Shown here: positions 27,513 to 27,700 of the stretch, one piece after another | How the letters are laid out: every line of letters starts with the position of its first letter | Numbering within the stretch: the first letter of the stretch is position 1 | Sequence record: PQ330092 | DNA: 64,000 bases | Source of the DNA: Escherichia phage JP4 | Direction: 5' to 3' (one strand) | Program-made: the position numbers and the translations under genes | The notes under the pieces: model-generated | What the model was told of the DNA's origin: nothing | What the model saw: only the letters and a program-made list of their open reading frames with translations | Databases searched by the model: none

Positions 27513-27700
27513 GGATTTTGGGTGTAGTTACCCTGGATGGATTTTGGACGTAGATATGTCTAGCCCTCCAGAAGTCTGGAAGTAAAGATGGCTATCCATC
27601 TAGACGGCTAAACGGCTAGATTTCTGGATGGCTGGATGGCTAGACGTTTGGACGGCTAAACGGCTAGATGGTTACACGTCTGGAAGTATAGACGGCTAAA
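27513..27700. repeat. iteron-like short direct repeats
   Basis: GGATTTTGG x2; GACGGCTAAACGGCTAGAT at 27603 and 27651, partial at 27691; TCTGGAAGTA at 27575 and 27679; GGATGGCT x2. Confidence 0.8.

Follow-up and report, generated by a model that had tools for sequence, protein, structure and literature searches.

The DNA considered here, a stretch of 64,000 nucleotides from Escherichia phage JP4 (record PQ330092; hereafter, the window), derives from an Asteriusvirus (PBECO4/121Q-like) jumbo coliphage with a genome of roughly 350 kb, and its segment 26500-28500 is 89-98% identical to the DNA of Asteriusvirus phages such as PBECO4, 121Q, G17 and fEgEco12. A direct repeat of 20,114 bp, 26792-46905, recurs from position 46906 to the end of the window with 0 mismatches, and this exact recurrence implies that the window passes from the right terminal-repeat copy into the left copy. 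Position 26792 is homologous to base 1 in five relatives that were deposited with terminal repeats (fEgEco12, BF17, CRJP21, ELP-22 and vB_Ec-M-J). The repeat is dense in sigma-70-type promoters, each with a leader hairpin followed by small open reading frames (ORFs), and contains a gene-free leader in which lies the element of interest, a gapless tandem array of 8-bp units. Given the agreement of these units with the binding matrix of the host methionine repressor MetJ, we propose that the array is probably a giant operator for MetJ acting with S-adenosylmethionine (SAM), with 14 metboxes, or 19 if all in-register units are counted, in each copy of the repeat.

The array and its fit to the MetJ metbox

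The array comprises 19 in-phase units between 27546 and 27697, that is, ~0.75-0.9 kb from the left end (755-905 bp from 26792), and is most regular in its core (Table 1). The 14 core units read, in order, AGATGGCT ATCCATCT AGACGGCT AAACGGCT AGATTTCT GGATGGCT GGATGGCT AGACGTTT GGACGGCT AAACGGCT AGATGGTT ACACGTCT GGAAGTAT AGACGGCT, and are preceded by five more degenerate units, the homologues of which in phages 121Q and UE-S1 mostly pass the threshold for a MetJ box given below (AGACGTAG AGATGTCT AGACCTCC AGATGGCT). Within the array, identity reaches 0.56-0.64 at lags of 8, 16, 24 and 32 against ~0.18 at other lags; the lag-8 signal (0.57) is the highest in the whole window, for which the mean is 0.27 (standard deviation 0.04). 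Tandem Repeats Finder reports periods of 8, 16, 24, 32 and 48 with 0% indels.

Table 1. Coordinates of the array and of associated features in the terminal-repeat leader
Feature	Position	Strand	Basis or remark
Left boundary of the 20,114-bp direct terminal repeat, corresponding to the physical left genome end	26792		Repeat comparison and relatives
Predicted rightward sigma-70 promoter, TTGACA-16 nt-TATAAT, perfect consensus	27157-27184	+	12/12 consensus matches; 360 bp upstream of the array
Inverted Chi pair, CCACCAGC acaa GCTGGTGG	27369-27388		580 bp from the left terminus
RATTTTGGRYGTA copies	27514-27526, 27540-27552 (just upstream of the array), 27863-27875, 28078-28090	+	4 exact copies per repeat unit
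Five degenerate units in the register of the core, GGACGTAG ATATGTCT AGCCCTCC AGAAGTCT GGAAGTAA	27546-27585		2/5 pass the MetJ box threshold (8.57 and 8.63 bits)
Core array, 14 contiguous in-register units	27586-27697		MetJ matrix: every unit at least 3.15 bits, total 102.8 bits
A/T-rich spacer AAATCAAAATTTTATTTTGTTTTT, then conserved block TTCCAATAGTTCCCCTACCGCG, directly after the last box	27698-27741	+	Alignment across three genera
Hairpin, then invariant GCAG(T/A)ATC	27741-27768		Stem GGGGA/TCCCC, 27743-27747 and 27753-27757
Predicted leftward sigma-70 promoter, TTGACA-17 nt-GATAAT	27795-27823	-	11/12 consensus matches
Second, identical array in the next terminal-repeat copy	47660-47811		Exact repeat; 14-box run at 47700-47811

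The original prediction had described positions 27513-27700 as a field of several distinct iteron-like motifs. The strings that it named are present (GACGGCTAAACGGCTAGAT at 27603, at 27651 and, in part, at 27691; TCTGGAAGTA at 27575 and 27679; GGATGGCT at 27626 and 27634), and the GGCTA cores, put at eight or more, amount to seven on the plus strand and one on the minus strand; however, these motifs are parts of one gapless 8-bp tandem array that is more regular than the description suggested. The pattern GGATTTTGG.YGTAG, given as occurring twice, has its first copy at 27513 as stated and its second at 27539, not 27537, and is found four times per repeat unit, always on the plus strand. The field was correctly placed 0.7-0.9 kb inside the repeat (721-908 bp from 26792) and correctly called non-coding, with no ORF of at least 30 amino acids in 27164-27853, and the GTAATCA repeats (period 10) do straddle the boundary at 26792, at 26642-26671 and 26856-26879.

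MetJ is a ribbon-helix-helix protein, one dimer of which occupies one 8-bp box, with cooperativity between neighbouring dimers and with SAM as the co-repressor. Natural met operators have 2-5 boxes, and AGACGTCT is the consensus metbox. At least two adjacent boxes are required for MetJ function (PMC3228920). We used the matrix and the criteria of Augustus and Spicer (2011; PMC3228920), under which a box scores at least a quarter of the consensus score and a site totals at least the consensus score (12.58 bits). In the 64 kb of the window, the sole qualifying sites are 27586-27697 and its terminal-repeat copy. All 14 of the 14 core units pass the box threshold, with a mean of 7.3 bits, and they are contiguous, in exact 8-bp register and free of indels, so that the site total exceeds the required 12.58 bits several-fold. 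In a control scan of 9 kb of Escherichia coli K-12 DNA, the same procedure recovered exactly the metJ/metB and metF operators, with four boxes each and 31.2 and 24.9 bits, respectively, whereas 100 first-order Markov simulations of 64 kb yielded at most 3 consecutive boxes and 18.1 bits.

The agreement with the MetJ matrix extends to the details of the units. Asteriusvirus has AGACGGCT as its majority unit; in Mimasvirus and Eneladusvirus this unit is exactly AGACGTCT, which is also the consensus of the arrays in T5-like phages that are discussed below. Position frequency matrices of the phage arrays correlate with the MetJ matrix at r = 0.90-0.95, and the second-choice bases agree as well (G at position 1, A at 2, C at 3, T at 4, and the mirror positions). 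Moreover, the distinct variant units outscore, on the MetJ matrix, random variants at equal Hamming distance from the consensus (none of 5000 simulations as high), and this result persists when the limits of the array are set from periodicity alone, which avoids circularity (none of 3000 simulations).

These comparisons bear directly on the notion that slippage generated the array as a neutral 8-bp minisatellite, with an accidental likeness to metboxes and no function. Slippage would be in keeping with a copy number that varies within Asteriusvirus by whole units only (8, 12, 14, 15, 19 and 24) and with the existence, in viral and bacterial contigs, of pure 8-bp microsatellites of similar composition. 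However, a mere 0.8% of random 8-mer repeat units, in any rotation, reach the observed mean score, the heterogeneous units stay within MetJ-compatible sequence space, and the array is retained at the same place in three genera with diverged flanks and in a second phage family; we regard a functionless minisatellite as very improbable. As a separate observation, some IMG/VR contigs contain pure 8-bp microsatellites of a single metbox-like unit (GGATGGCT, AGATGTCY x36, AGCCTTCC), often at contig ends; these may be arrays of the same kind, artefacts of assembly or repeats with no relation to the phage array.

A role of the array as a folded single strand was also considered. Its predicted folding (z = -4.8) is what quasi-palindromic units would be expected to give and hence provides no independent evidence for a hairpin function. 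A search of 26300-28800 against Rfam (E up to 1) returned only a chance match to a snoRNA.

Distribution of the array and its candidate binders

In Asteriusvirus, the array is kept in exact register at all eight loci examined (the window and seven others), but the number of units varies: SHEFM2K has 8, G17 and WPEC5 have 12, the window and fEgEco12 have 14-15, 121Q and UE-S1 have 19, and EJP2 has 24, its units being largely different yet still metbox-like. An array of 12-17 units occupies the same place in other Rak2-like jumbo phages, namely those of the genera Mimasvirus (XbC2, GAP32, Kaldavass) and Eneladusvirus (Serratia phage BF, pEa_SNUABM_12, fHe-Yen9-04), which otherwise share little DNA identity with the window; in XbC2 and BF it lies 650-800 bp from the start of the record. 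The leader and array of XbC2 (648-775) are almost unit-for-unit identical to those of Erwinia phage Kaldavass (2502-2629). This conservation is what the original prediction had put forward as a check on its proposal of a protein-binding type of repeat array in a non-coding leader near a terminus, and in this general form the proposal appears well founded.

A search with the field also retrieves T5-like phages (Demerecviridae) of Vibrio, Aeromonas and Providencia, in which the matching DNA is non-coding. The contiguous boxes number 15 in Vibrio phage Pontus, 9 in pVp-1 and 28 in Aeromonas phage AhSzq-1 (221 bits), and 9-10 near-consensus boxes are found in Providencia phage PR1 and its IMG/VR relatives. 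The T5-like arrays are near-consensus (GGACGTCT AGACGTCT ...), lie close to DnaA boxes and follow the last pre-early gene and its terminator; the zone that bears them is the injection-stop zone described for T5. By inspection, the elements of these zones come in the order CTGTATAAATATACAG palindrome, TGTGGATAA DnaA boxes, Fur-like repeats (in some phages), metbox array, C-rich CTGCGC block and GTGCAAATCCGAC-type repeats. The MetJ-matrix scan of T5 itself found no metbox array; the equivalent place holds AAATGAGAATCATT repeats (9653-9712), which agree with the Fur consensus in 15-16 of its 19 positions. The zone of the window, scanned with the Fur consensus, gave no match. By inspection and a simple consensus count, the T5-like injection-stop zones (in T5, 9405-9425 and 9550-9720) can be read as ordered sets of putative host-regulator sites, namely a LexA-box-like palindrome (CTGT-N8-ACAG, for example ACTGTATAAATATACAGTA), DnaA boxes, Fur-like repeats and, outside T5, the metbox array. 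In the analysis of the injection-stop signal (iss) by Davison (10.1101/866236), which compared 25 iss regions, DnaA is the sole host factor named, and MetJ, Fur, LexA and the Vibrio phages are unmentioned; two-step DNA transfer has been shown experimentally for T5 and BF23 only (10.1101/866236).

With respect to sequence, the elements common to the window and the T5-like zones are the metbox array and, following it, a C-rich YGCG block. No DnaA boxes and no T5-type GTGCAAATCCGAC (DRD) repeats were seen in the zone of the window, which accordingly departs from the T5-type injection-stop arrangement of paired DnaA boxes in IRD'-spacer-IRC' together with DRD repeats, placed distally on the repeat that enters first. 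Homology of the whole zone to the T5 iss region was considered and dropped, the only match being a segment of 32 nt at 28264-28294 (GCGTTAGAATGCGTCTGAGGCCGTTTTATGG), 87.5% identical to T5 9346-9376 at the start of IRD' and retained as no more than a weak lead (E = 0.006 in a database of a few kb). By inspection, the invariant CCCCT(A/T)CCGCG (27731-27741) after the Rak2-like arrays resembles CCCCTCCTGCGCC after the T5-like arrays; at the equivalent position of T5, 9740-9749, there is an annotated major single-strand interruption (9748/9749).

The comparison with T5-like phages is also pertinent to the suggestion, made in the original prediction, of a terminase-type function. On this reading, the terminase small subunit would recognise the array or assemble on it, as at the pac or cosB repeats of other phages, and the array would help to produce the fixed ends and the terminal repeat. 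Sites for terminase small subunits typically contain repeat arrays, the boundary close to the array is homologous in several independently sequenced relatives, and in PR1, the terminal repeat of which is annotated as 1-10461, the array lies ~0.8 kb inward of the right boundary. Yet T5 shares the genome architecture and lacks the array that its Vibrio, Aeromonas and Providencia relatives carry at the equivalent place, the boundary concerned is the left one in Asteriusvirus and the right one in T5-like phages, and unit counts within a single genus span a three-fold range. Nor does this reading account for the fit to the MetJ matrix, and a terminase or pac site, which gains no support from these data, seems quite improbable.

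Turning to the protein that would bind the array, MetJ is confined to Enterobacterales, Pasteurellales, Vibrionales, Aeromonadales and Alteromonadales (PMC3228920). Of the 83 phage records that match the field, 82 fall within these five orders when assigned from the first word of the organism name, the exception being Xanthomonas phage XbC2, and E. coli K-12 encodes metJ (2079-2396 of the K-12 sequence examined). A phage-encoded MetJ was sought with tblastn: E. coli MetJ against 50,697 phage records retrieved three host-contaminant records only, and no homologue of MetJ, T5 A1 or T5 A2 was found in the window. Furthermore, a Pfam scan confined to 47 terminal-repeat ORFs detected no ribbon-helix-helix, MetJ, Arc, initiator or SAM-related family.

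These searches speak against a binder of the phage's own, either a small ribbon-helix-helix protein or another early or virion protein with a preference for AGACGTCT-like 8-mers, for which the array would serve as a centromere-like site or as the operator of a polymerising repressor. Such an arrangement has known counterparts, since contiguous short repeats bound by ribbon-helix-helix proteins are an established design (omega heptads, ParG boxes), most of the terminal-repeat ORFs belong to no known family, and an excess of G at position 6 of the units (see below) could reflect a protein other than MetJ. However, Rak2-like myoviruses and T5-like siphoviruses would both need this protein, its match to a host matrix down to the second-choice bases would be a coincidence, and the neighbours of the array in T5-like phages include DnaA boxes and other sites for host proteins. 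Taken together, these considerations make a phage-encoded binder unlikely.

Least credible of all is an iteron replication origin, the reading that the original prediction had placed among its options, in which an initiator would bind the repeats beside an A/T-rich unwinding element. The region is non-coding and rich in repeats, and a 25-bp A/T-rich stretch, 27698-27722, adjoins the array; however, the units are contiguous 8-mers as opposed to iterons of 17-22 bp, which are usually spaced by the helical repeat, no DnaA box matching at 8 or more of 9 positions occurs in 26400-28600, no initiator-like gene appeared among the 47 ORFs scanned, and the origins of T5 map near the middle of the genome, outside the injection-stop zone (10.1101/866236).

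The interpretation of the array as a MetJ operator is itself an in silico one, and several observations weigh against it. The phage units have G in place of T at position 6 in 36-58% of cases compared to 10% in real metboxes, and the arrays of Vibrio phages often have A at position 4; either the affinity per box is probably suboptimal or the preference of the true binder differs slightly from that of MetJ. The array adjoins no methionine-gene promoter, the nearest predicted promoters, ~90 and 360 bp away, serving no methionine gene, and hence it is not an ordinary operator; it is met-operator-like in sequence but lies outside the MetJ regulon. XbC2 carries the array although Xanthomonas has no MetJ, so that the array of this phage would either be idle in Xanthomonas or the usual hosts of XbC2 would be enterobacteria. 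Finally, loose 8-bp repeats of similar shape occur as plain microsatellites in organisms without MetJ: a loose four-box pattern run over genome contigs retrieved simple repeats in Streptomyces, Gemmatimonadales and others, an uninformative outcome that makes the loose pattern alone non-diagnostic.

Other elements of the leader and the terminal repeat

The array is embedded in a series of other conserved or over-represented elements. RATTTTGGRYGTA, ~1 copy of which is expected in the whole window, occurs four times per terminal-repeat unit, always on the plus strand, and its second copy overlaps the first degenerate unit of the array. On the other side of the array, the alignment of Asteriusvirus, Mimasvirus and Eneladusvirus reveals as invariant the last box, AGACGGCT, followed by AAA, and then CC.(T/A)T.G.T..CCT.CCGCG; the block after the array has the three-genus pattern TTCC..TAG.TCCCCT.CCGCG. 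The stem of the hairpin that follows varies between genera with complementarity kept (GGGGA/TCCCC, CTGGT/ACCAG, CTAGT/ACTAG, CTGGA/ACCAG, CTAGA/TCTAG).

The transcript of the predicted leftward promoter would reach the array after ~90 nt, and both hexamers are kept in 121Q and EJP2. A leftward promoter into the array common to the three genera was considered and rejected, as the scan calls none at the equivalent place in XbC2 and Serratia phage BF. The inverted Chi pair, which in this context is another element that engages a host factor, is kept in the seven fetched Asteriusvirus relatives, with both orientations ~90 bp apart in EJP2, and the G17 record annotates the site as a terminator. Chi (GCTGGTGG) is found 22 times in the window, where 0.67 are expected, with 10 sites per terminal-repeat unit (27369-27388, 33150, 33212, 37252, 38715, 39983, 42331, 43737 and 45537, plus the repeat copies; the others are at 14814, 15072 and 15327). 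Eight of the sites in the repeat unit are on the plus strand and are thus oriented for RecBCD that enters at the right end; in XbC2, a minus-strand Chi lies 216 bp from the left end. This enrichment looks like protection of DNA ends against RecBCD.

The window contains 27 copies of the perfect palindrome TCAGTACTGA, where 0.06 would be expected, and their density is highest in the gene-free leader (9 copies, 26722-28383). The leaders of Mimasvirus and Eneladusvirus are likewise full of its AGTACT core, and the core is located just upstream of the -35/-10 elements of many early promoters. Two elements of ~75 bp headed by AATTTTGGGCGTAA lie at 27861-27948 and 28064-28140, the second being 88% identical to XbC2 998-1071 despite the divergence of the genomes. 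Viewed on the minus strand, these elements resemble an early promoter followed by a GCCCACNGGGTGC motif, which is also found downstream of promoter-like TTGACT...TATTAT repeats (39882, 43151, 45409) and, by inspection, in Serratia phage BF. Each of the AATTTTGGGCGTAA-headed elements could represent a small non-coding transcription unit or serve as a regulatory site.

The Pfam matches of the small early ORFs in the repeat comprise a DksA/TraR zinc finger, a GNAT acetyltransferase, a ParE-like toxin domain and a weak protein-kinase-like region (37865-38122, 38187-38543, 41708-41962, 42510-43151), as well as a few domains of unknown function. This early ORF set fits a host-takeover module.

Proposed role and comparison with known systems

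If MetJ binds the array, the entry of phage DNA into a SAM-replete cell would lead to the coating of ~110-150 bp of each repeat copy by 14-19 MetJ-SAM dimers. With respect to the consequences of such binding, we tentatively favour, as the leading candidate in a field where no role is assured, a nucleoprotein block or landmark that depends on SAM and marks the non-coding zone at the boundary of the terminal repeat. The array lies between predicted converging early promoters, and it is in this boundary zone that the first-step DNA transfer of T5-like phages pauses. The argument for a block is that the position is conserved and the factor is not: the corresponding slot of T5 holds Fur-like repeats, and Fur, too, polymerises on DNA. 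In addition, the single palindrome and the few DnaA boxes of T5-like phages are too few for sinks. A caveat is that the leftward promoter that a roadblock role needs was scored within Asteriusvirus only.

A possible alternative or additional role, to which we give somewhat less credence, is a high-capacity MetJ sink, in which titration of MetJ as the genome replicates would de-repress methionine and SAM synthesis in the host. The presence of 14-28 boxes where 2-5 suffice, in two arrays per virion genome that are multiplied by replication, looks like capacity. T5 destroys host DNA early, and for phages of this type de-repression of the host would be pointless, which weakens the sink in their case. 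The two roles are compatible with each other.

More speculatively, and at odds that we consider long, the boundary zones of long terminal repeats in both Rak2-like and T5-like phages could be landing pads, made up of sites for host regulators that depend on a cofactor or on their own integrity and that would thus read host physiology on the first-entering DNA. The candidates would be SAM-bound MetJ, iron-loaded Fur, ATP-bound DnaA and uncleaved LexA, and a MetJ-SAM filament would gate DNA transfer, early transcription or the processing of the repeat boundary. If this were the case, the long-unexplained T5-type injection-stop signal would acquire a concrete molecular basis.

Should MetJ bind, the array would be the largest MetJ site known to us, 3-7 times the size of the natural operators scored, and two unrelated phage families would have placed a SAM-sensing host repressor on their terminal repeats. 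The array also offers a handle on the role of the conserved non-coding leaders in the ~20-kb terminal repeats of Rak2-like jumbo phages and on the host factors that act at the T5-like injection-stop zone; a sink, if that is its role, would give a phage a DNA-only means to raise methionine and SAM synthesis in its host. We found no prior report of a viral MetJ array: full-text searches link neither MetJ nor the metbox with T5-like or jumbo phages, and the array is undescribed in the papers on CBB, G17 and fEgEco12. What appears to be new is a met operator several-fold enlarged and moved onto phage terminal repeats.

The closest sequence counterparts are the met operators of E. coli and Salmonella (metF, metJ/metBL, metA, metC, metE/R, metK, metNIQ), with which the phage array shares the AGACGTCT-family 8-bp unit, the head-to-tail register and the tolerated substitutions. 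These operators, with four boxes and 25-31 bits in our control, overlap the promoters of methionine genes, whereas the phage array has 14-19 boxes (28 in AhSzq-1), lies in a terminal-repeat leader and is rich in G at position 6. Contiguous short repeats for polymerising ribbon-helix-helix dimers are also found in the omega heptads of pSM19035, the ParG boxes of TP228 and parC of R1, and MetJ has the same fold; in those centromere arrays, however, the binder is encoded by the element itself and acts in partition or autoregulation, whereas the phage array fits a host protein and no comparable phage protein was found in the terminal-repeat ORFs. The datA locus, for DnaA, and the multicopy Fur boxes of the Fur titration assay exemplify clusters of high-affinity sites that act by soaking up a regulator and not through control of a neighbouring gene; titration of MetJ by the phage array is a proposal by analogy, and we know of no titration locus for MetJ or on a phage terminal repeat. 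The short repeats near the T7 terminal repeat, to which the original prediction compared the field, are alike in position only, with a different unit, a different type of phage and a terminal repeat of 160 bp.

The injection-stop zone of T5-like phages, also non-coding, offers a closer parallel. The iss zone of T5, 'Repeat Region 3' (10.1101/866236; NC_005859 9140-10149), is likewise a gene-free, repeat-dense zone less than 1 kb from the boundary of a long direct terminal repeat, and that repeat is likewise full of sigma-70-driven early genes. The two zones differ in that the T5-like one is at the right end of the repeat and carries sites for the host protein DnaA, whereas the Asteriusvirus one is at the left end and, in the window, has no DnaA boxes; the Vibrio, Aeromonas and Providencia members of the T5-like group nevertheless share with it the metbox array.

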